DNA of 11,878 nt from a virus (IMGVR_UViG_2654587726_000023); one strand, 5' to 3'. Positions 1 through 10,247 are shown, counted from the first letter of the stretch. Notes: generated by a model not told the origin, from the letters alone. Made by a program: numbers and translations.

Positions 1-2
1 CG

Positions 3-116
3 GGGATGCTGGAAAAGGGGAACGACCGCCGTTACAAGAAAAAGGCGCTCAGCAAAATTGGGGGGAAGCAGCATGTTTTTTACGTGCTGATGTTCCAGCC
101 TGAGGCAGAAGATTAA
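3..116 (+). CDS. 3-prime end of upstream CDS running off the window (possibly C-terminus of the island replication initiator/primase)
   Basis: Open frame from window edge to TAA at 114-116 (…KIGGKQHVFYVLMFQPEAED*); immediately followed by iteron array. Frame choice is uncertain because all three frames are open for most of this short stretch. Confidence 0.3.
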   Translation, partial: GMLEKGNDRRYKKKALSKIGGKQHVFYVLMFQPEAED

Positions 117-139
117 CCCCCTGTGTGATGTAAAAAGTT

Positions 140-262
140 GCGGGTTATGCGGGTTATCCTGTGTATAAGTGCATTAACTGTATGAATAAAAAGGAAATCA
201 ATAACCCGCACGTAACCCGCAAAACGGCAGTTATAACCCGCAAAAGTGCGATTATAACCCGC
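140..262. repeat. Iteron array 1: 2 abutting copies of GCGGGTTAT (140-157), a ~43 bp AT-rich spacer, then 4 copies of (A/G)TAACCCGC at 201, 212, 233, 254; putative replication origin
   Basis: Direct reading of the sequence; 9-mer in inverted orientation flanking an AT-rich core, with 21-bp spacing between later copies. Confidence 0.6.
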
Positions 263-326
263 AGAATTTCACCGTAAGGGTGTAAACAAGCGTAACCATC
301 AACGTTAAAACCGGAGAGCAGACAGC

Positions 327-752
327 ATGACAGCACAGATAGCGGCTTACGGGCGGCTGGTGGCTGACCCGCAGTTAAAGACCACCAGCAAAGGGACACA
401 AATGGCGATGGCGAGTATGGCGGTTCCCCTGCCATGCAGCCAGGCAGATGACGGAACGGCGACGATGTGGTTATCTGTCCTGGCGTTTGGCAGACAGGCC
501 GACGCACTGGCAAAACACCACAAAGGCGAACTGGTGAGCGTGGCGGGTAACATGCAGGTGAGCCAGTGGACAGGCCAGAACGGGGAAACGCAGCGGGGCT
601 GGCAGGTTATTGCAGACAGCGTAATCAGTGCGCGAACGGCGCGACCGGGCGGCAAAAAAGGTCAACAGGGCCAGGCCACTGACGCACTGAACAGGGCAAA
701 ACAACAGACAAGCCAGCACGATGACCCGTACGGGGATAACATACCGTTTTAA
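327..752 (+). CDS. ssb: Single-stranded DNA-binding protein (SSB) family protein
   Basis: 141 aa; OB-fold-like pattern (…WLSVLAFGRQADALAKHHKGELVSVAGNMQVSQWTGQNGETQRGWQV…) resembling E. coli SSB core, Gly/Gln-rich linker and C-terminal acidic tip …DDPYGDNIPF matching the SSB DDDIPF tail; GGAG RBS at 313-316. Confidence 0.7.
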   Translation: MTAQIAAYGRLVADPQLKTTSKGTQMAMASMAVPLPCSQADDGTATMWLSVLAFGRQADALAKHHKGELVSVAGNMQVSQWTGQNGETQRGWQVIADSVISARTARPGGKKGQQGQATDALNRAKQQTSQHDDPYGDNIPF

Positions 753-788
753 TTCACAACAGCGAACAGAGTAATTACGGGGGAAGGC

Positions 789-1319
789 ATGACAACGCTG
801 ACCATTAACCGGAAGCCGAAAGGCATTTACGGCACGCCGCAGAAAACGACGCAGGCGGCACAAGAGCAGGATAAAACCACATCGGCGCATAAAGTGATAC
901 CCGGCAATCAGAACGCACAGCAGAAGCCCACAGGGGCGACACCGTGGCAGCATATGACCAAAAGGCAGCGCAAAAACCGCCGACGCGTTAACCGCCTCAC
1001 TGAGATGTGGCCTGACTTATTCAGCCATAAAGCACCGAAGCCGCTTAAGGTGGGGATATTCGACGACCTGATGCAGGATATCGCCGTCAGGAGGCTGGCA
1101 TTCGGGCCGGGGGTATTACGTGCGACGCTGGCATCCTATGCGCAGTCTCCGCGCTATTACCGCGCCCTGATAGCTGGTGGCGCACGTTACGACCTGAAAG
1201 GCCAGCCATGTGGGGAAGTGACACCACAGGAACAGCAGGAGGCAGAAACACGGCTGATGGTGCTGAATGAGAAGCACAAGCGCCAGCGCCGGGCAGCAAA
1301 GGGGGATACATGCCAGTGA
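789..1319 (+). CDS. ProQ/FinO-domain RNA-binding protein
   Basis: 176 aa; basic N-terminal region (KRQRKNRRRVNRL) followed by PLKVGIFDDLMQDIA…LRATLASYAQSPRYYRALIAGGARYDLKGQPCGEVTPQEQ, closely resembling the ProQ/FinO domain core (PLKIGIFQDL…LRLYTSSWRYL…RVDLDGNPCGEL); strong RBS GGGGGAAGG before ATG 789. Confidence 0.65.
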   Translation: MTTLTINRKPKGIYGTPQKTTQAAQEQDKTTSAHKVIPGNQNAQQKPTGATPWQHMTKRQRKNRRRVNRLTEMWPDLFSHKAPKPLKVGIFDDLMQDIAVRRLAFGPGVLRATLASYAQSPRYYRALIAGGARYDLKGQPCGEVTPQEQQEAETRLMVLNEKHKRQRRAAKGDTCQ

Positions 1320-1558
1320 CATTTGAAGAAGTTCAGCAACATAAAAAGCTGCATGGTTTTGATGATCTGGAAACCACGACAGCAAAAAAATATCGTCGGT
1401 TGCTTTCTTCCGATGCGTTATTTTTTGTGGATCATCATGATTTTCTGCGTAGCTCACTGACCGGGGAAATTTTCGCAACCAACCGTGAGCAGGTGGAAGC
1501 GATGATCGAATATTTGTGGAAAATAAGACGCAGAATGCGGGAGCCAGTGAAACAATAA
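1310..1558 (+). CDS. Hypothetical small protein (82 aa), translationally coupled to upstream gene
   Basis: ATG 1310 overlaps stop of previous CDS (1317-1319), RBS AGGGGGA upstream; followed by intrinsic terminator; no recognisable family. Confidence 0.5.
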   Translation: MPVTFEEVQQHKKLHGFDDLETTTAKKYRRLLSSDALFFVDHHDFLRSSLTGEIFATNREQVEAMIEYLWKIRRRMREPVKQ

Positions 1559-1569
1559 AGCGATAAAGG

Positions 1570-1595
1570 CCCGGATTTTTTCCGGGTCTTTTTTC
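1570..1595 (+). terminator. Rho-independent terminator after ssb/proQ-like/orf82 operon
   Basis: Hairpin CCCGGA-ttttt-TCCGGG followed by TCTTTTTT. Confidence 0.7.
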
Positions 1596-1611
1596 AGGTT
1601 TTGTAAATTAT

Positions 1612-1761
1612 TTGTTCGTGGTTGTTCCAGGTTGTTCGGTGATTCTGGTTGATGTTTACATACTGATTTTTATGTATATGTTGGCGTGTGGCACTCAGAC
1701 GTGAGCCGCCACAATGCCGCCTGACCCCCTGCGCGATGCCGGGTTGATCTGCGAGATGCCG
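1612..1761 (+). promoter_or_regulatory. Putative regulatory region upstream of the capsid gene: TTGTTC x3 at 10-bp phasing (1612, 1622, 1632), interrupted palindrome TGTGGC-N15-GCCACA (1687-1713), ATGCCG x3 at ~21-bp spacing (1714, 1736, 1756)
   Basis: Direct reading; helically phased short repeats in the 235 bp intergenic region before the morphogenesis genes. Confidence 0.4.
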
Positions 1762-1832
1762 AGAGTGTCGGGCGGCGCTCCCCCCCGTGTTGGTTTCACG
1801 TCCTGAATCTTAACCAATGCGAGAAAACCTTC

Positions 1833-2978
1833 ATGAAGAAATTAATCGAACTCCGCCAGCAAAAAACCGCCCTGAAAAACCAGATGCGATCCCTGCTGGA
1901 AAAAGCCGACAGTGAAAACCGCAGTCTAACCGATGACGAAGGCAAACAGTTTGATGAACTGCGTGCAAAAGCCGATTCCCTCGACACAGAAATTTCCCGC
2001 CTCGAGTCTGTGGCTGATGAAGAACGTAACCAGCCTGGTGTTCCCGTCGAAGATAAAATCACCAAAAATGAGCTACGCTCTTACATTCTGACCGGGGAAA
2101 CCCGCAACCTGTCCGGCAGTGTTCCGGCTGATGGTGGTTATACGGTTATCCCGGAACTGAACAGAGAAATTATGCGTCAGCTTTCTGATGAGTCGGTGAT
2201 GCGTAAAATCTGTACTGTTAAAACCATTCACAGTAATGAATTTAAGCAACTGGTTTCTGCCGGGGGTGCGGTCGTGGGACACGGCGAAGAAGGTGCGGCA
2301 CGTAACCAGACGGCAACCCCAAAACTGAATGAAGTCAGTATCCGCCTGTATCCGATCTACGCTTACCCGAAAACCACTCAGGAAATTATCGATTTTTCCG
2401 AAGTCGATATTATGGGCTGGTTATCTTCTGAAATTGGCGACACTTTCGTTGATACCGAAGAAACGGATCTGGTTTCCGGTGATGGCGAGAAAAAAGCCAA
2501 AGGTTTCCTGACTTTCCCGCGCGCTACGGATAATGACAAAACCCGTCCTTTCGGTACGCTCCAGACGAAAAAAGTGACTGGCAGTCTCAGCGCCGATATG
2601 CTGATTGACCTGAAATTTACGCTGCGCAATAAGTACCGCAAAAAAGCTGTATGGGTGATGAACTCAAATACAGCCGCCTCCGCACAAAAACTGAAAAATG
2701 CCACTGGTGATTACATCTGGCGCGATCGTTTACAGGCTGGTGATCCTGATTCTCTGCTGGGGCTTCCGGTTGAATATCTGGAATTTATGCCAGACGGTGT
2801 GATTGCAGTCGGTGACTTTAAGCGCGGTTATTTCATCGTTGACCATAAAACCGGTACGCGTACCCGTCCGGATTTCAGCGAGCCTGGATTCATTAACATC
2901 TATACCCAGAAATATCTGGGCGGTGGTGTGGTGGATTCGAACGCCATCAAGATTCTGGAAATTCAGGCTGGCAAGTAA
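1833..2978 (+). CDS. Major capsid protein, HK97 family (with N-terminal coiled-coil delta/scaffold-like domain)
   Basis: 381 aa; N-terminal ~100 aa coiled-coil region followed by capsid fold motifs (…LVSGDGEKKAKGFL…, …NKYRKKAVWVMNSNTA…, …SLLGLPVEYLEFMPDG…VGDFKRGYFIVDH…) typical of HK97-type capsid proteins. Confidence 0.85.
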   Translation: MKKLIELRQQKTALKNQMRSLLEKADSENRSLTDDEGKQFDELRAKADSLDTEISRLESVADEERNQPGVPVEDKITKNELRSYILTGETRNLSGSVPADGGYTVIPELNREIMRQLSDESVMRKICTVKTIHSNEFKQLVSAGGAVVGHGEEGAARNQTATPKLNEVSIRLYPIYAYPKTTQEIIDFSEVDIMGWLSSEIGDTFVDTEETDLVSGDGEKKAKGFLTFPRATDNDKTRPFGTLQTKKVTGSLSADMLIDLKFTLRNKYRKKAVWVMNSNTAASAQKLKNATGDYIWRDRLQAGDPDSLLGLPVEYLEFMPDGVIAVGDFKRGYFIVDHKTGTRTRPDFSEPGFINIYTQKYLGGGVVDSNAIKILEIQAGK

Positions 2979-2984
2979 TGAGCA

Positions 2985-3008
2985 AAGGGGGCTTCGGCCT
3001 CCTTTTTC
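2985..3008 (+). terminator. Intrinsic terminator immediately after capsid gene
   Basis: Hairpin GGGGGC-ttcg-GCCTCC (7 bp stem with one G-U pair, UUCG tetraloop) followed by TTTTT. Confidence 0.65.
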
Positions 3009-3027
3009 AGCTTTATGGAGTACACCG

Positions 3028-3588
3028 ATGAAAAACACCGATTTTGAAATCCGTACATCTGAACTGACCGCCAGCGATAAAAAACTGGTGGGTTATGCCG
3101 TTCGCTGGAACAGCCTTTCAGAAATTATCTGGGACGAGTTTCGCGAACAGTTCACGCCGGGGGCTTTTGCTGACTATCTGGCGGCAGGTAATGATGTGCG
3201 CTGTCTGTATGAGCATGACTATACCCAACTGCTGGGGCGTACCAAATCCGGCTCACTGGTACTGACTGAGGATAACACCGGGCTACGTTTTGAACTGACA
3301 CCGCCAAATACCCAGCTTGGAAAAGATGTGCTTACGCTGGTGGAACGTGGCGATATTACAGGAATGAGCTTTGGCTTTCGCGCATTATGCGAGGAGTGGA
3401 ATATCGCGCAAAAACCGTATCTGCGTACTGTAACCGCAGCAGAACTCCGTGAAATCACGATAACATCGATGCCTGCTTATCCCGAATCCGGCGTGGAGAT
3501 TGCCCACCGTTCGTTGTTTGCACAGTACCCTGAATTACGCCCGGCAGGAAATAATCGTCATCGCTGGGCTGAACTGGCGGGGTTGTGA
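3028..3588 (+). CDS. Prohead maturation protease, HK97 family (S78/U35)
   Basis: 186 aa from ATG 3028 with GGAG RBS at 3017-3020; motifs …GYAVRWN…, …GAFADYL…, …LYEHD…LLGRTKSG…, …GDITGMSFGF… typical of HK97 prohead protease; ORF-track start at 2803 lies inside capsid gene and is rejected. Confidence 0.8.
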   Translation: MKNTDFEIRTSELTASDKKLVGYAVRWNSLSEIIWDEFREQFTPGAFADYLAAGNDVRCLYEHDYTQLLGRTKSGSLVLTEDNTGLRFELTPPNTQLGKDVLTLVERGDITGMSFGFRALCEEWNIAQKPYLRTVTAAELREITITSMPAYPESGVEIAHRSLFAQYPELRPAGNNRHRWAELAGL

Positions 3589-3589
3589 T

Positions 3590-4804
3590 ATGTGGTGGCC
3601 TTTTAGTCGTAAAAAAAGCGATCTGCGTAACCTGTCCATTGATGATTTTCTGGCGTTGTCTGGTGTACCAAATACCGGATCCGGAGAATATGTTTCTGCC
3701 GGGACGGCTGAATCATTGCCTGCTGTGATGAACGCGGTTTCTGTCATCGCTGAGGCGGTGGCCACGATGCCGTGTTACCTGTATCTGGTACGCAATGATA
3801 AGGGCAGAGAGGCGCGGGAATGGCTGGACAGTCACCCGGTAGATATTCTGCTGAATGAGCAGCCTAATTCGTGCCTGACACCTTACCAGTTTAAACGCAC
3901 AATGATGCGTCACTGCCTGCTGAACGGTAACGCCTATGCGGTTATTGAGTGGGGGCGGGACGGGCAGCCAAAATCACTTCATCCTTATGCGCCGGGGTGT
4001 GTTGTACCGGAACGCACAGGCACACACAAATACCGCTATACCATCACCGAACCCTGTACAGGAACGGTGCGCACGTATTTACAGGAAGAAGTTCTGCATC
4101 TCCGCTATGCCTCGGATGATGGCTTTCTGGGGCGTTCCCCCGTCACGATTTGCCGTGAGGCGCTGGGGCTTGGCCTTGCTCAACAGCGTCACGGAGCCAG
4201 CATTATGAAAGATGGCATGATGGCGGCAGGGATTATCACGTCAGGTGAATGGCTGGACGGCGTGAAAGGTAAACAGGCATTAGACGCACTGGAACGCTAC
4301 AAGGGGGCGAAAAATGCCGGAAAAACGCCAATCCTTGAAGGGGGCATGGATTACAGGCAGCTGGGGATGAGTAACCAGGATGCGGAATGGCTGGCCTCCC
4401 GTCGCTTCTCCATTGAAGACATCGCCAGGATGTTCAACGTGTCGCCGATTTTTCTTCAGGAATACAGCAACAGCACCTACAGCAATTTCAGTGAGGCGAG
4501 CCGCGCATTTCTGACCATGACAATGCGCCCGTGGCTGGCGAACTTCGAACAGCAAATCAAGGCCGCTTTGCTGGTGACTTCTCCCGTACCTGGTACCCGT
4601 TATCTGGTTGAGTTTGATTCAGCCGATTTACTGCGCGCCACACCCACCGAACGTTATGCCACGTATGAGAAAGGGATTAAGAGCGGGATCATGAATCCGA
4701 ACGAAGCTCGCGAACGCGAGGGTATGCCGCCGCGTGAAGGTGGTGATGAGTTCAGCCAGGCATGGAAACAGACTGTGGAAATTAAAGGGAGAAAAGATGA
4801 GTGA
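3590..4804 (+). CDS. Portal protein, HK97 family
   Basis: ~404 aa from ATG 3590 (2 nt after protease stop); portal motifs …LLNGNAYAVIEW…, …HLRY…GRSPV…, …LEGGMDY…, …SRRFSIEDIARMFNVSPIFL…. Confidence 0.85.
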   Translation: MWWPFSRKKSDLRNLSIDDFLALSGVPNTGSGEYVSAGTAESLPAVMNAVSVIAEAVATMPCYLYLVRNDKGREAREWLDSHPVDILLNEQPNSCLTPYQFKRTMMRHCLLNGNAYAVIEWGRDGQPKSLHPYAPGCVVPERTGTHKYRYTITEPCTGTVRTYLQEEVLHLRYASDDGFLGRSPVTICREALGLGLAQQRHGASIMKDGMMAAGIITSGEWLDGVKGKQALDALERYKGAKNAGKTPILEGGMDYRQLGMSNQDAEWLASRRFSIEDIARMFNVSPIFLQEYSNSTYSNFSEASRAFLTMTMRPWLANFEQQIKAALLVTSPVPGTRYLVEFDSADLLRATPTERYATYEKGIKSGIMNPNEAREREGMPPREGGDEFSQAWKQTVEIKGRKDE

Positions 4805-5099
4805 AGCCAGAATTACACCTGATGAAGTCAGGGCACATCTTCGACTTGATGATGATTTATCCGGTGAAGGCGAACTTCTGAAAATGTATACCGATGCGGC
4901 GCTGGAAGCCTGCCAGAAGCATATCGGGAAACGTTTTGAAGACGGGCTGGAATTTACCCCGGCAATGCGTGTTGGTTGCCTGATGTACATCGCTTTCCTG
5001 TACGAGAACAGGGAAGCAGTTTCACCAGTGGAGCAGTCTGAACTGCCTATGGCTATTTCTGCGCTCTGGTCGGTTTATCGTGATGTGGGGGTGTACTGA
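4797..5099 (+). CDS. Head-tail connector / DNA-packaging protein (phage gp6-like)
   Basis: 100 aa from ATG 4797 (overlaps portal stop in ATGAGTGA), RBS GGGAGA; N-terminus MSEARITPDEVRAHLRLDDD…LLKMYTDAALEA resembles gp6-like head-tail connector family. Confidence 0.55.
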   Translation: MSEARITPDEVRAHLRLDDDLSGEGELLKMYTDAALEACQKHIGKRFEDGLEFTPAMRVGCLMYIAFLYENREAVSPVEQSELPMAISALWSVYRDVGVY

Positions 5100-5539
5100 T
5101 GCCGTGGCAACCATTAAGGCGATGCACTGAGCCGGGCTGTAATAAGCGCGTGAAGTCCGGCAAGTGTGAAGAGCACAGACGGGCTGTATGGCGTGCAGAG
5201 GATGCCAGACGGGGACACCGCCGCGCGCGCGGGTATTCCCGACAGTGGGACAAATACCGCGCCCTGTACCTGAGCAAAAACCCGTTATGCGTGCGTTGTC
5301 TGGCTAAGGGGATTTATACGCCAGCTCTTGTGGTGGATCACATCATCCCCATCAATGGCGGCGGTGATGTTCTCTTCTGGCCTGAGTGGAACCACCAGGC
5401 ATTGTGCCAGACGTGCCACAACCGTAAGACGACACGGGAAGATCCAGCCACGAAAGCGAACCGTAAGGCGGGCATGTATCGCGAGCAGGAAGAACGGGCA
5501 GCACACCGTAACGACTGGATGTATGGCGATGATGACTGA
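5099..5539 (+). CDS. HNH endonuclease (packaging-associated)
   Basis: 146 aa; start ATG overlaps connector stop (TGATG); Cys-rich zinc region and HNH core …VVDHIIPINGGGDV…WNHQALCQTCHNRKT…; positioned just upstream of terS as in HNH-dependent cos packaging systems. Confidence 0.8.
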   Translation: MPWQPLRRCTEPGCNKRVKSGKCEEHRRAVWRAEDARRGHRRARGYSRQWDKYRALYLSKNPLCVRCLAKGIYTPALVVDHIIPINGGGDVLFWPEWNHQALCQTCHNRKTTREDPATKANRKAGMYREQEERAAHRNDWMYGDDD

Positions 5540-5708
5540 ACAGGAGCAAACCAGGCTGATACGTGGACTGATAAGGCAGCGTGACTTATGGAAGACACAG
5601 GAGACAGGGCACAAAGCCAACAGGACAGGGCGCACAGAACGCACCACAGCGAAGCAATTAACCGACCGTGACCGCGAGGTCATGGAATGTTTTCGCAATC
5701 GCTGGTGA
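5529..5708 (+). CDS. Hypothetical small basic protein (59 aa)
   Basis: ATG 5529 overlapping end of HNH gene in another frame; Arg-rich MMTEQEQTRLIRGLIRQRDLWKTQETGHK…; no clear RBS; could be non-coding. Confidence 0.3.
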   Translation: MMTEQEQTRLIRGLIRQRDLWKTQETGHKANRTGRTERTTAKQLTDRDREVMECFRNRW

Positions 5709-5827
5709 GGCCGTCAGAGGGGGTGGGGGTGGTTTTCAGGACGAAACCGTCCCTGCCGGACACCGACCGCCTCCTCAAATTTTTGTGCACGGGAATTTTT
5801 TTGAAAATAATTGGGCGAAAAAAGAAC

Positions 5828-6184
5828 ATGGCAAGACCACCAAAAGCCCCCGCTTACCTGGATGAAATCGCGGTCAGGCAGTGGAAGGAAAAATCGCGCC
5901 AGCTTTCCGGACGGGAAGACCTTACCCCCGCCGACTGGAGCAATCTGGAGCTGTATTGCGTTAACTACTCCATATACCGCAAAGCCGTCGAAGACCTTGC
6001 CACGCGCGGGTTCAGCATTGTTAACAGTCAGGGCAGCGAGAGCAGAAACCCTGCCCTGAGCGCAAAGGCTGACGCTGAAAGAATAATGATCAAAATGGCT
6101 TCTTTGCTGGGTTTTGACCCGGTAAGTCGCCGCAGAAATCCACCGGAAACAGAGGAAGAGGACGAGCTTGACCGCCTGGCATGA
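5828..6184 (+). CDS. Terminase small subunit (P27-like)
   Basis: 118 aa from ATG 5828; …PADWSNLELYCVNYSIYRKAVEDLATRGFSIVNSQGSESRNPALSAKADAERIMIKMASLLGFDP… resembles P27-family small terminase; directly precedes and overlaps terL. Confidence 0.65.
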   Translation: MARPPKAPAYLDEIAVRQWKEKSRQLSGREDLTPADWSNLELYCVNYSIYRKAVEDLATRGFSIVNSQGSESRNPALSAKADAERIMIKMASLLGFDPVSRRRNPPETEEEDELDRLA

Positions 6185-7829
6185 GTACGCAGAAGGCGTA
6201 AAAAACGGCAAAATTACGGCCTGTAAACGACTGAAACAGGCCGTTAAACGGTATTTTTCTGACCTTGAAAACCCCCTTTACACGTTCGATCCGGAGGTCG
6301 TGGAGCGGTTTATTGCCTTTTCCAGGGTGTGTCCGCACGTAAAAGGCGCAATGCGCGGTAGCCCCATTGAGCTGGAGCCGTGGCAGCAGTTCGCCTTTGC
6401 GTGCATCCTGGGCTTTAAGGTTAAGGCCACCGGACGGCGCAAATACACCAGCGCATTCATTGAAGTGCCGCGAAAAAATGCCAAATCCACGGTCGCCGCT
6501 ATCCTGGCTAACTGGTTTCTGGTTATGGAAAACGGGCAGCAGGATATTTACACCGCCGCCGTGAGTCGTGATCAGGCGCGGATCGTGTTTGATGATGCGC
6601 GTCAGATGTGCCTTTTATCCCGACCGTTACGAAAGCGGGTAAATATTCAGGCACACAAGGTGATACACCCGAAAACCAACAGCCTGTTAAAGCCACTGGC
6701 AGCAAAAGCGGCAACCATTGAAGGTACAAACCCGAGTCTTGCCATTGTGGATGAATATCACCTGCACCCTGACAACGGGGTTTATTCCGCGCTTGAACTG
6801 GGAATGGGGGCGCGTCCGGAGGGGCTGTTATTTGCCATCACCACATCGGGGAGCAACGTTGTTTCAGCCTGTAAACAACACTATGACTATTGCTGCCAGA
6901 TACTGGATGGTGAAGAGGTGAACGAATCCATGTTCGTGCTGATTTACGAGCTGGATGATGAAAGCGAGGTTGACGATCCGGCGATGTGGATAAAGGCGAA
7001 TCCCAATATCGATGTTTCCGTCGATCGTGAAAAACTGGCCTCAACCATCCAGAAAGCGCGGGGTATTCCGTCGCAGTGGGTGGAAATGCTCACCAAGCGA
7101 TTCAATATCTGGTGTCAGGGGGCTACACCGTGGATGGGTAGCGGTGCATGGGCGGAGTGCGCCGGAACGTTCGCGGAGGCGGATTTATACGGTCAGGAGT
7201 GCTACGCGGGGCTGGACTTATCATCAACCAGCGATATTTCCAGCGTGTGCTATGCCTTTCCGGTCGGTAAAAAGATTATGCTGGTTTCCCGTCACTATCT
7301 GCCGGAATTTCAGCTACAGAACCCCGCCAATAAAAACCGCGCCATCTATCGCCAGTGGGTAAAGGCGGGCTGGATACGCACAACACCGGGTGACTGCATT
7401 GATTATGACCGTATCCGTGATGACATCATGGCGGATGCAGAGAATTTCAATATCAGGCTGGTGGGCTTCGATACATGGAACGCCACGCACCTGAGGACGC
7501 AGCTACAGGGGGCAGGATTTGAGGTGGAGCCGTTCCCGCAAACATACCTTCGTTTCAGTCCGGCGGCGAAATCGTTCGAAGTTTTTGTTAACCGGAAGGT
7601 GATTGTGCATCGTGGCGATCCGGTGCTGGCCTGGTCAATGAGTAATGTTGTGATGCAGAGTGACGCAAACGCCAATATCAAGCCGAACAAGAAAAAATCA
7701 TCCAACAAGATAGACCCGAGCGTTGCGGCTCTGATGGCGTTTGGCACATTCCAGGCAGAACATGAGGAATTTGCATTTGATATAAGCGACAGCCACAAAG
7801 AGCGGCTTGCGGCGTTTGATGGGGTATGA
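6168..7829 (+). CDS. Terminase large subunit
   Basis: 553 aa; apparent TTG start at 6168 with GAGGA RBS, overlapping terS end; motifs …LEPWQQFAFACILGF…, ATPase region …EVPRKNAKSTVAAIL…, …AIVDEYH…, nuclease-domain region …GLDLSSTSD…. Confidence 0.9.
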   Translation: MTAWHEYAEGVKNGKITACKRLKQAVKRYFSDLENPLYTFDPEVVERFIAFSRVCPHVKGAMRGSPIELEPWQQFAFACILGFKVKATGRRKYTSAFIEVPRKNAKSTVAAILANWFLVMENGQQDIYTAAVSRDQARIVFDDARQMCLLSRPLRKRVNIQAHKVIHPKTNSLLKPLAAKAATIEGTNPSLAIVDEYHLHPDNGVYSALELGMGARPEGLLFAITTSGSNVVSACKQHYDYCCQILDGEEVNESMFVLIYELDDESEVDDPAMWIKANPNIDVSVDREKLASTIQKARGIPSQWVEMLTKRFNIWCQGATPWMGSGAWAECAGTFAEADLYGQECYAGLDLSSTSDISSVCYAFPVGKKIMLVSRHYLPEFQLQNPANKNRAIYRQWVKAGWIRTTPGDCIDYDRIRDDIMADAENFNIRLVGFDTWNATHLRTQLQGAGFEVEPFPQTYLRFSPAAKSFEVFVNRKVIVHRGDPVLAWSMSNVVMQSDANANIKPNKKKSSNKIDPSVAALMAFGTFQAEHEEFAFDISDSHKERLAAFDGV

Positions 7830-8119
7830 CGAGAATGAGCGAAACCGAACTACTAAAAATAATCCGTCGCGTTACCGGAATCAGCCAGGAAGCAGGCAAA
7901 CAGGAGGCCACGCAGCCGGACAGCGTGATAGCCGAAAATTACGCGCGTGTGGTGGCTGAGGTGATGCGCCGTGACGGTATCGAGCTTAACGGCGTGGATA
8001 TACGCAATATACGCACCAGAGTTCTGGAGTTGTTGTCATATCGTCGCCGCGTGGAGATGTACCAGGAGAAAGAAAAAATTACTTACCACTGGAAGAAGCC
8101 GGAGCGGTTACGACGTTAA
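7826..8119 (+). CDS. Hypothetical protein (97 aa) downstream of terL
   Basis: ATG 7826 overlaps terL stop (ATGA); alternative ATG at 7835; no recognisable family. Confidence 0.45.
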   Translation: MTRMSETELLKIIRRVTGISQEAGKQEATQPDSVIAENYARVVAEVMRRDGIELNGVDIRNIRTRVLELLSYRRRVEMYQEKEKITYHWKKPERLRR

Positions 8120-8123
8120 CTTG

Positions 8124-8170
8124 TGGTGACATACCGTGACGGAGAGTGACAACCAGTGACACACAGTGAC
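8124..8170. repeat. Five helically phased copies of GTGAC at exact 10-bp intervals (core at 8126, 8136, 8146, 8156, 8166)
   Basis: Direct reading: tgGTGACataccGTGACggagaGTGACaaccaGTGACacacaGTGAC. Confidence 0.7.
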
Positions 8171-8192
8171 AAAAAGACGGTATTTAAATAGA

Positions 8193-8222
8193 GTGGGTGT
8201 TTAATACCCCCCGTTTTTTTTC
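8193..8222 (+). terminator. Possible weak intrinsic terminator (short GC stem then T8 run)
   Basis: GGG…CCC short stem followed by GTTTTTTTT at 8212-8221; stem is weak. Confidence 0.3.
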
Positions 8223-8373
8223 GTGTGGTGCATGGTCAAAATGACCACGGAGAAGATACGCACCGAAGCAGAACAATTACCGTAGGTTAAAGCGACAGTA
8301 TTCACACCAGCAACCTGATTATCAATTTTCAGCCGTTCGGTGGCATCACTGGCCCCATTTTCCTGATGGGGTT

Positions 8374-8526
8374 GCGGGTTATTTGGGGGGGATTTGCGGG
8401 TTATTTTGAATGTCTCGCGGGTTACGCTTTGGCTAATATTCAAACGCATCATTTTTTAACTCATTGATATTAAAGAATAAAAAATACTTAGCAAGCGAAG
8501 ATAACCCGCTAACCCGCATAACCCGC
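8374..8526. repeat. Iteron array 2: 3 copies of GCGGGTTA(T/C) at 8374, 8396, 8417 (about 21-bp spacing), ~75 bp AT-rich spacer, then 3 abutting copies of (A)TAACCCGC at 8501-8526; same 9-mer as array 1
   Basis: Direct reading; same inverted-iteron-flanking-AT-core architecture as 140-262. Confidence 0.6.
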
Positions 8527-8879
8527 ACTGTTTTGTATATATATATACGAAAAATTGCATTCAGGAGGTGGGATCGAAATCCCTACAACCCATTGCTTAT
8601 GGGACTGCCCGCCCCGTCAAATTTTTACACCCGCGAAAAATACTTCAAGCTGGTGGGCATGATGCCGATATGGGGATCCCCATGTCGACATTAACGCCCC
8701 TCATGAATTGGCGTGCTTCCCCCTGGAAAGATGACCCGCCTGTATATTTCTTGTGTCTATTTGTTCCACGTTGTTTCATACAGTGCACCGAACGGTGTAG
8801 TTACTGGTGTAGTCATTTTGCGATTTTTAAAGTTATCTAAGATATTATTTGTCGCTTAAATTCAATTAGTTATGAGTAT

Positions 8880-10247
8880 TTGATTATAAATAGCGGATAT
8901 GAATATCCGGCGAAAAAAATCACCATCAACCTTGCTCCAGCCGATCTGCCAAAAGAAGGGGGACGATATGATTTGCCTATCGCTATTGCGTTACTGGCGG
9001 CCTCAGAACAGCTTACAGCCAATAAGTTAGATGAATATGAATTAGTCGGAGAACTGGCGCTTACAGGCGCTCTGCGTGGCGTTCCCGGCGCAATCTCCAG
9101 TGCAACTGAAGCTATTAAGTCGGGCAGAAAAATTATCGTCGCGAAAGATAACGAAGATGAAGTGGGGCTAATTAACGGTGAAGGATGCCTGATAGCCGAT
9201 CATCTGCAGGCTGTCTGCGCGTTTCTGGAAGGTAAGCACGCTCTCGAACACCCGAAACCAACTAATGCAGTATCCCGGGCGCTACAACATGATCTCAGTG
9301 ATGTTGTCGGTCAGGAGCAAGGAAAGCGAGGACTGGAAATTACCGCCGCTGGCGGGCACAACCTTTTACTGATTGGACCGCCGGGAACAGGTAAAACAAT
9401 GCTCGCCAGCCGTATTAATGGCCTTTTGCCAGATTTAAGCAATGAAGAGGCACTGGAGAGCGCTGCGATATTAAGTCTGGTAAATGCTGAATCAGTACAA
9501 AAACAATGGCGGCAGCGCCCGTTCCGCTCACCTCATCACAGTGCGTCGTTAACTGCGATGGTGGGCGGTGGTGCAATTCCAGGGCCAGGTGAAATTTCGC
9601 TGGCGCATAACGGCGTGCTTTTTCTTGATGAGCTACCTGAATTTGAACGGCGTACACTGGATGCCTTGCGAGAGCCGATTGAATCCGGGCAGATCCATCT
9701 TTCACGCACACGAGCAAAAATAACCTATCCAGCCCGTTTCCAGCTTGTCGCGGCAATGAATCCCAGCCCTACCGGACATTATCAGGGAAACCATAACCGC
9801 TGCACACCAGAACAGACATTACGTTATCTCAACCGGCTCTCGGGGCCCTTTCTCGACCGCTTCGATCTCTCACTGGAGATCCCATTACCGCCCCCCGGCA
9901 TTTTGAGTAAAACGGTAGTGCCGGGAGAAAACAGCACCACCGTTAAACAACGTGTAATGGCCGCCAGAGAGCGCCAATTTAAGCGGCAGAATAAACTGAA
10001 CGCCTGGCTGGATAATCCGGAAATACGCCAATTCTGCAAGCTTGAAAGCGAAGATGCGCAGTGGCTGGAAGAAACGCTGATCCATCTGGGGTTATCGATT
10101 CGTGCCTGGCAGCGGTTATTGAAAGTTGCACGAACCATTGCTGATATTGATCAGTCTGACATTATCACACGTCAGCATTTGCAGGAGGCAGTTAGCTATC
10201 GTGCGATTGACCGTTTGCTCATCCATCTGCAAAAACTACTGACATAA
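8880..10247 (+). CDS. comM: ComM (YifB) Mg-chelatase-like AAA+ competence protein, 5-prime truncated by island insertion
   Basis: 455 aa frame beginning IINSGYEYPAKKITINLAPADLPKEGGRYDLPIAIALL…, Walker A GPPGTGKT; corresponds to E. coli YifB from about residue 51 onward as I recall it; upstream in-frame sequence diverges and hits a stop at 8838-8840; only a TTG at 8880 with no RBS. Confidence 0.85.
   Translation: MIINSGYEYPAKKITINLAPADLPKEGGRYDLPIAIALLAASEQLTANKLDEYELVGELALTGALRGVPGAISSATEAIKSGRKIIVAKDNEDEVGLINGEGCLIADHLQAVCAFLEGKHALEHPKPTNAVSRALQHDLSDVVGQEQGKRGLEITAAGGHNLLLIGPPGTGKTMLASRINGLLPDLSNEEALESAAILSLVNAESVQKQWRQRPFRSPHHSASLTAMVGGGAIPGPGEISLAHNGVLFLDELPEFERRTLDALREPIESGQIHLSRTRAKITYPARFQLVAAMNPSPTGHYQGNHNRCTPEQTLRYLNRLSGPFLDRFDLSLEIPLPPPGILSKTVVPGENSTTVKQRVMAARERQFKRQNKLNAWLDNPEIRQFCKLESEDAQWLEETLIHLGLSIRAWQRLLKVARTIADIDQSDIITRQHLQEAVSYRAIDRLLIHLQKLLT

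Follow-up and report, generated by a model that had tools for sequence, protein, structure and literature searches.

The viral sequence IMGVR_UViG_2654587726_000023 (11,878 nt, hereafter the window) consists of an inserted element, at positions 1–8881, followed by Escherichia coli chromosomal DNA. In our judgement, the inserted block very likely belongs to a capsid-forming phage-inducible chromosomal island (cf-PICI) of the EcCIEDL933 lineage, of whose 15.05 kb it forms the replication-distal 8.9 kb; a tyrosine integrase would have placed the island at codon 52/53 of comM, the gene for a DNA-uptake and recombination helicase. Gene transfer by elements of this kind was recognised recently and is very widespread; all they require of phages is tails, and with foreign tails they can cross between species. 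Taken alone, the comM locus adds little to this picture, being one more E. coli member at a known target of integrative elements. It is valuable as a natural variant: the integrase, the replicase and the right-end cos modules have been swapped around a head module that is 99% conserved, an instance of capsid-forming and classical PICIs shuffling their modules. The parts most worth experiment are the loss of head closure, a second cos site and a split origin.

The window maps to the comM–maoP–hdfR–tRNA-Trp–tRNA-Asp–rrnC region of the E. coli chromosome, as judged from its open reading frames (ORFs), its tRNAs and alignment to complete genomes. All 5,426 complete E. coli genomes match it from position 8883 rightwards, and the DNA to the left of 8883 is an insertion. 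At least 80% of the 8.9-kb block was found in 64 complete E. coli genomes, nine of which carry it at full length with 99.4–99.7% identity. The whole element was read from such near-identical genomes, not from the window's own genome, and chiefly from NZ_AP022261 (L001; 99.7% identical). Proteins were called with Pfam at curated cut-offs and with PHROG, the prototype was compared by tblastn, and species spread was assessed by scanning a single genome of each species with a TerL profile.

A preliminary description, made from the window alone, had ended the block at 8879, where comM lacks about its first 50 codons, and had proposed comM as the integration site. Alignment with the uninterrupted K-12 gene bears this out: codons 1–52 are missing, the earlier block end lies within 2–3 bp of the true boundary, and the same alignment sets the junction and a 16-bp core. 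The att cores form an imperfect direct repeat over these 16 bp, ATTAT(C/A)AATAGCGGAT; attL, ATTATCAATAGCGGAT, lies 15,048 bp upstream of attR in L001, which gives an element length of 15.05 kb, and the uninterrupted (attB) comM sequence contains ATTATCAATAGCGGATATGAATATCC. The gene is split after codon 52, codons 1–52 being displaced ~15 kb upstream in related genomes, and RefSeq marks the 3' part as partial, with its N-terminus missing. This island–comM junction was present in 20 of the 5,426 E. coli genomes and in none of 80 species-level TerL loci.

The left half of the element, for which the preliminary description had pointed leftwards to an integrase, attL and the 5' part of comM, is present with all three of these in the 99.7% identical copies. 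The order in L001 is the comM 5' fragment, a tyrosine integrase, alpA, an icd-like gene and small ORFs, DUF4222, the DUF927 replicase, the content of the window, and the comM 3' part. The full DUF927 gene encodes 707 aa (L001 9993–12116, Pfam DUF927), and only its 3' end lies within the window. Tail and lysis genes contiguous with the block upstream, which would have pointed to an ordinary prophage, are absent from these near-identical complete copies, and annotation places none between attL and attR of the complete L001 element.

Gene order is collinear with that of EcCIEDL933, the prototype cf-PICI of E. coli O157:H7 EDL933 (NZ_CP008957.1, ~1,680,300–1,694,800), from the integrase to the ORF after TerL, and the window proteins are 56–93% identical to their counterparts there. 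Together with the PICI left half of the near-identical copies, this upholds the earlier identification as a capsid-forming PICI. The likeness extends to the DUF927 replicase (83%), the TAACCCGC iterons after the replicase gene, the position of the first cos site and the size of ~15 kb. The + strand genes previously listed, for SSB, a ProQ/FinO protein, capsid with delta domain, protease, portal, gp6-like adaptor, HNH endonuclease (a packaging co-factor of HK97/P27-type cos terminases), TerS and TerL, all pass the Pfam curated cut-offs (Table 1). Still present in the capsid protein are an N-terminal delta region of ~93 aa, the cleavage motif SGSVPAD and an extra 'connector loop'. Among solved structures, PDB 9gyi ('Major head protein') matches the protein best (E = 1e-184); we take it to be the EcCIEDL933 capsid protein because length and alignment agree with the EDL933 gene. 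Equivalents of D257, K290, D295, E319 and R345, mutations of which abolish or reduce EcCIEDL933 transfer (10.1101/2025.02.11.637232), are all conserved in the alignment.

The window ORFs include no tail, baseplate or lysis (holin/endolysin) genes by Pfam or PHROG, as had been noted before, and the complete 99.7% identical element has none either. The element combines an integrase and att sites, AlpA, a replicase and origin, capsid and protease, portal, the adaptor Ad1, and HNH, TerS, TerL and cos with this absence of tail and lysis genes, and at 15.05 kb it falls within the ~10–18 kb of cf-PICIs; the second head-tail joining protein of that class is lacking. A classical PICI it is not, with portal, Ad1 and TerL all present, genes that the SatelliteFinder PICI model treats as 'forbidden' (PMC10085698). 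Nor does it have the make-up of an intact HK97-like prophage, there being no tail, lysis or immunity modules between attL and attR of L001.

Table 1. Features of the comM-borne element and its right junction; positions refer to the window unless L001 is named, and percentages are identities.
Feature	Position	Strand	Basis or remarks
Integrase	L001 6035–7264		Pfam Arm-DNA-bind_3 and Phage_integrase; 84% to EcCIEDL933
alpA regulator	L001 7641–7829		Pfam Phage_AlpA 2.7e-18; 90% to EcCIEDL933 alpA
DUF927 primase/replicase gene, 3' end	1–116	+	EcCIEDL933 DUF927 residues 674–710, 89% (tblastn)
Replication origin, iteron cluster A	138–264		TAACCCGC twice on −, AT-rich spacer, four times on +; TRF, repeat finder
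SSB	327–752	+	Pfam SSB 1.1e-15; 68% to EcCIEDL933 SSB
ProQ/FinO-domain protein, accessory	789–1319	+	Pfam ProQ 6.2e-24
Conserved small ORF, 82 aa	1310–1558	+	phrog_1957 4e-36; 40% to EcCIEDL933 ORF 5' of capsid gene
HK97-fold major capsid protein, N-terminal delta domain	1833–2978	+	Pfam Phage_capsid 7e-61; 74% to EcCIEDL933
Prohead maturation protease (S78)	~3027–3588	+	Pfam Peptidase_S78 1.2e-44; annotated start L001 15027; 61% to EcCIEDL933
Portal protein	3590–4804	+	Pfam Phage_portal 2e-91; PDB portal matches; 80% to EcCIEDL933
Head-tail adaptor Ad1 (gp6-like)	4797–5099	+	Pfam Phage_connect_1; phrog_40 Ad1 1.8e-28; 56% to EcCIEDL933
HNH endonuclease	5099–5539	+	Pfam HNH 8.8e-10; 84% to EcCIEDL933
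Homolog of EcCIEDL933 gene 1792, small ORF	5523–5708	+	78% identity; phrog_3173
cos1, the element's own cos region	~5750–5800	+	Between HNH and terS; contains CACCGACCGCCTCCTCAAATTTTTGTGCACGGGAA
Small terminase TerS, P27 family	5828–6184	+	Pfam Terminase_4 4e-23; 89% to EcCIEDL933
Large terminase TerL	6168–7829	+	Pfam TerL_ATPase and TerL_nuclease; 93% to EcCIEDL933
Conserved post-TerL ORF, 97 aa	7826–8119	+	phrog_1561 9e-50; 77% to EcCIEDL933
Iteron cluster B, second origin-like module	8374–8526		TAACCCGC three times on −, AT-rich spacer, three times on +
cos2, second cos-like site, phiP27 type	8564–8638	+	85.7% over 75 nt to annotated phiP27 cos region
Right (P) arm of attachment site	8665–8829		GGTGTAGTxA twice and TTGTTCCACGTTGT; putative integrase arm-type repeats
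attR core ATTATAAATAGCGGAT	8882–8897		Three-way alignment with uninterrupted K-12 comM
comM (yifB), codon 53 to stop	8883–10247	+	K-12 alignment; Pfam ChlI N-domain from profile position 33

By analogy with EcCIEDL933, we infer that the comM element resembles the prototype in how it is induced, in the size of its capsids, in its packaging specificity and in its use of helper tails, and that it is active today. According to its description (10.1101/2022.09.08.507074), EcCIEDL933 is induced by a helper via alpA, makes its own small capsids, uses its own HNH, TerS and TerL, and takes only tails from the helper; its capsids are T=4 and 47.5 nm (10.1101/2025.02.11.637232). In the comM element, a helper phage would activate alpA, left of the window, the island would excise across the 16-bp core, and the DUF927 primase/helicase would replicate it from the TAACCCGC iterons. 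The late operon (capsid, protease, portal, adaptor, HNH, TerS and TerL) would build small capsids, probably T=4, and island concatemers, cut at cos1 on the 5' side of terS, would fill them. The filled heads would then join the tails of a co-resident HK97/P27-like siphophage, the island itself encoding neither tail nor lysis proteins.

Several points weigh against this reading. The integrase, alpA and most of the replicase lie outside the window and have been read in near-identical genomes only, and the helper phage is hypothetical. The second cos-like site, cos2, lies 2.85 kb downstream of cos1 and could interfere with unit-length packaging. In addition, the window contains no homolog of the prototype's head-closure protein (tblastn with that protein, best E = 2.7); since head genes are essential in the prototype, the comM element could be transfer-defective alone.

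The attachment site itself may reflect a change in integrase specificity. A 76-nt repeat with 78% identity lies near both element ends (window 8742–8817 and L001 5927–6002), and with its two copies of GGTGTAGTxA and TTGTTCCACGTTGT it probably represents the arm-type sites of the integrase. The right arm is 94–96% identical to the arms of elements at the roxA site, and the core and last ~50 bp differ; the integrases of comM and roxA-site elements diverge most at residues 1–40 and 161–200. Conservation of the arm with divergence of the core and integrase is consistent with a switch of core specificity. The comM (yifB) gene is a documented target of integrative elements, which have its integrity under their control (PMC7192596), and its inactivation by the island would be reversible on excision, of possible interest for regulated gene integrity. 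The TIGER supplement reports that Salmonella prophage ST35 recombines within aatttccggctaaaaaaataaccatt (window 8897–8925, comM codons ~58–66); this crossover falls a few bases downstream of the island core, which makes a short stretch of comM a shared hotspot. E. coli cf-PICIs use six attB sites, as stated in 10.1101/2022.09.08.507074, and a literature search linking PICIs to comM/yifB, with the six-site attB table beyond its reach, returned no paper naming this comM-borne cf-PICI.

The origin-like sequences of the block are duplicated. The 8-mer TAACCCGC occurs 12 times in the window where 0.32 copies are expected, and 0 of 200 shuffles reached 12. The replication iterons of the preliminary description are thus real, but they form two clusters, 8.1 kb apart, in place of a single one. 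Cluster A, with six copies at 140–262, lies just 3' of the replicase gene in a region 90% identical to the post-replicase region of EcCIEDL933. Cluster B is 77% identical over 154 nt to a segment of the prototype (L004 6875–7027) that adjoins cluster A there. The same module occurs at the right end of two classical PICIs (L007 and L008), whose replicases are unrelated and use other iterons. Among related PICIs, each replicase type has its own iterons 3' of its gene, and in the comM element cluster B is cognate to the DUF927 replicase. Cluster B could be a second origin or an enhancer of the P4 crr type; two separated clusters of one iteron parallel P4 ori and crr.

Packaging sites are duplicated as well, there being two cos-like sites and not a single one. 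The first, cos1, aligns with the cos of the Stx2e phage phiP27 and with the same position in EcCIEDL933, and is homologous to these but more divergent than cos2. At least 37 of 69 related loci have the motif ACCxCCCGCCxCCTCAAATTTTTACGCACGG at this position, between HNH and terS. Both EcCIEDL933 and a sister cf-PICI in E. coli FDAARGOS_1249 (L005) lack cos2, which is present in the right ends of the classical PICIs L007, L008 and L091; the last of these, an 8-kb island of E. coli 042, has the cos2-type module and no packaging genes. Identity to the phiP27 counterparts is only 32% for the island's TerS and 30% for its TerL, so cos2 is more likely a target of a helper terminase, or a passenger of the backbone, than a target of the island terminase. 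A lambda-type cosN is absent from the window and from related PICIs, so cos2 does not represent the lambda-like cos-rpp arrangement of EcCICFT073-type PICIs.

Comparison with the sister element places recombination breakpoints in the block. L005, found between roxA and phoQ in FDAARGOS_1249 and ~40 further genomes, is 98–99% identical to window 294–8125, from SSB through the post-TerL ORF; it too lacks head closure, and its right arm is 96% identical. It differs in its integrase (83%), att site, P4-type primase and TGTTCACC iterons, and is without cluster B and cos2. Window 1–293 and 8125–8665 are not common to the two, with breakpoints at 294 and ~8125. On this comparison of sequences, the comM element is a chimera, a cf-PICI packaging module within a DUF927-replicase PICI backbone. 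The same head module on two backbones implies recent movement, which argues that the module is active. In L005 8515–8745, a P4-alpha-like primase is followed by multiple TGTTCACC repeats, the octamer that also forms the iterons of phage P4 ori and crr.

An extension of the chimera, which we regard as possible though doubtful, is that the recombinant has two routes of transfer, combining a cf-PICI module in a cos-type PICI backbone with cos1 and cos2, a second origin-like module cognate to its replicase, and dispensed-with head closure of its own. Under such a scheme, either the island terminase would fill the island's small heads, with the helper giving head closure and tails, or a phiP27-like terminase would pack multimers into helper heads. 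If true, a wider range of phages could mobilise the island.

A departure from the prototype is the absence of head closure. The preliminary description had called the head set complete; the genes it listed are all there, but the head-closure gene of the prototype is absent between portal and adaptor. The portal stop overlaps the Ad1 start at 4797–4804 with nothing between, and alignment to relatives with the gene gives a clean absence of ~339 bp. EcCIEDL933 has a 113-aa 'phage head closure protein' at this place, and the related element QL57EC (L009) retains the gene between otherwise similar flanks. A direct portal–adaptor junction was found in 143 of the 5,426 E. coli genomes, against 355 with an EDL933-type head-closure gene. 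Among 57 scorable species-level loci, 9, ranging from Xenorhabdus to Gilliamella, had an adaptor-only portal–HNH spacing of ~310 nt. Elements without the gene do not share a distinct adaptor clade, their Ad1 proteins not being monophyletic. These patterns suggest that the absence apparently arose more than once, and mark it as a trait of the lineage, not local damage.

How the comM element might manage without this gene can be considered from the prototype. In its description (10.1101/2022.09.08.507074), every packaging-module gene of EcCIEDL933 except 1792 is essential for transfer, and mutation of 1792 strongly lowers it. Because the prototype's head and packaging genes are essential, yet head closure is absent here, the helper probably supplies head closure too, or else the divergent adaptor docks tails alone. 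The 97-aa, 82-aa and 61-aa ORFs were considered as replacements and rejected, all three being present also in EcCIEDL933, which has head closure. This successful lineage can dispense in cis with a gene that the prototype needs, which raises the question of what the helper supplies.

The same absence invites the reading, which we consider unlikely, that the element is a cf-PICI by descent and now a transfer-defective relic, whose heads without closure cannot retain DNA or bind tails and which passes by vertical inheritance only. The requirement for head and packaging genes in prototype transfer, as given in 10.1101/2022.09.08.507074, favours this, as does the rarity of the comM-borne version among E. 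coli genomes (20 of 5,426). The remaining ORFs are nonetheless all intact, copies of the module without head closure are 99% identical between two att sites where integrase and replicase differ, and this type of module occurs in 143 E. coli genomes. The recurrence of the Ad1-only layout across species, with adaptors that are not monophyletic, likewise fits a working variant over decay.

A further reading starts from cos2 and makes the element mainly a classical cos-PICI, packaged by the helper terminase via cos2 into helper capsids, with its own capsid module secondary or interfering with phage; we hold this unlikely as well. cos2 shares 86% identity with the cos region of phiP27, and a module of this type is the sole packaging signal in small PICIs without packaging genes, such as L091. 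The low identity of the island terminase subunits to those of phiP27 points the same way, and three island genomes amount to 45.1 kb, near the 42.6-kb phiP27 genome. However, L005 and EcCIEDL933 keep the same packaging module without cos2, and the intact and conserved head module would be left unexplained. cos2 may also have been inherited with the backbone in recombination.

That the block is a degraded HK97-like prophage and not a satellite, having lost its tail, lysis and lysogeny modules, is highly improbable: the structural genes are phage-derived, with HK97/P27-type phages as nearest non-satellite homologs, but the best true-phage matches are only ~30–39% identical, the int-alpA-icd-DUF4222-primase left half is a typical PICI module, the size stays near 15 kb across genomes, the compact layout is kept in at least 80 species, and no tail-gene fragments or pseudogenes are present.

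The remaining features of the cf-PICI block are minor. The ProQ/FinO protein is RNA-chaperone-like with an N-terminal extension of ~60 aa, and its gene is found also in the classical PICIs L007 and L091. In the 275-bp gap 5' of the capsid gene lies a tandem repeat, TTGTTCGAGG, of 2.7 copies (1612–1638), possibly a site at which the late operon is regulated. Directly 3' of the last + strand gene are ~4.8 copies of 10-nt repeats containing GTGACA (8126–8175), a stretch with short matches across many E. coli genomes, and a terminator scan placed a terminator-like hairpin at 8195–8209, 3' of the post-TerL ORF. The − strand ORF at 8201–8452, a RefSeq hypothetical in relatives, is probably no true gene: it has no Pfam or PHROG match, and from 8374 iterons overlap its 5' part. 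An Rfam search of the window returned the two flanking tRNAs and nothing else, and a promoter scan gave 8 matches against 7.9 expected, a chance level that supports no promoter call. An integrase scan of species-representative genomes, aimed at comM-targeting integrases beyond E. coli, confirmed no relatives, and the TerL alignment was used in its place.

Set beside known systems, the comM-borne cf-PICI departs from EcCIEDL933 in several modules. The prototype sits between roxA and phoQ and the comM element in comM; besides lacking head closure, the latter has ProQ/FinO where the prototype has PerC, an adaptor of merely 56% identity, cluster B at the right end and not beside cluster A, and the extra phiP27-type cos-like site. 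With classical PICIs (L007 at tRNA-Pro/yejO, L008 at cspD/clpS, and L091 of E. coli 042) it has in common the int-alpA-icd-DUF4222-rep-SSB(-ProQ/PerC) left half and the right-end phiP27-type cos module, and with L007 and L008 also the TAACCCGC cluster. These islands have no portal, adaptor, TerL or stand-alone capsid gene and therefore need helper capsids.

Among phages, the HNH-dependent cos siphophages of the HK97/phiP27 type share the HK97-fold capsid with delta domain, the S78 protease, portal, gp6-like adaptor, HNH with TerS (P27) and TerL, and a homologous cos. Their proteins are ~30–39% identical to those of the island, which is without tail, lysis and lysogeny-switch genes and has one third of the genome size. 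The satellite phage P4 is similar in being an integrated satellite with an alpA-type regulator, a primase-helicase and a helper-type cos site. P4 has no capsid, portal or terminase genes and remodels P2 capsids with Sid.

The packaging module is found well beyond E. coli. The 80 species-level loci, with TerL 70–92% identical, come from Shigella, Klebsiella, Enterobacter, Serratia, Yersinia, Proteus, Xenorhabdus, Photorhabdus, Pantoea, Erwinia, Aeromonas, Pasteurellaceae and Gilliamella, and are laid out as portal–(head closure)–Ad1–HNH–TerS–TerL. This spread agrees with published accounts of the cf-PICI family as widespread, which date from 2022–23 (10.1101/2022.09.08.507074; PMC10085698). SatelliteFinder counted 969 cfPICIs, in 13% of Enterobacteriaceae genomes and with a median size of 14 kb; an element with 10 of 11 components still counts as a cfPICI there, of Type B, to which 459 of the 969 were assigned (PMC10085698).

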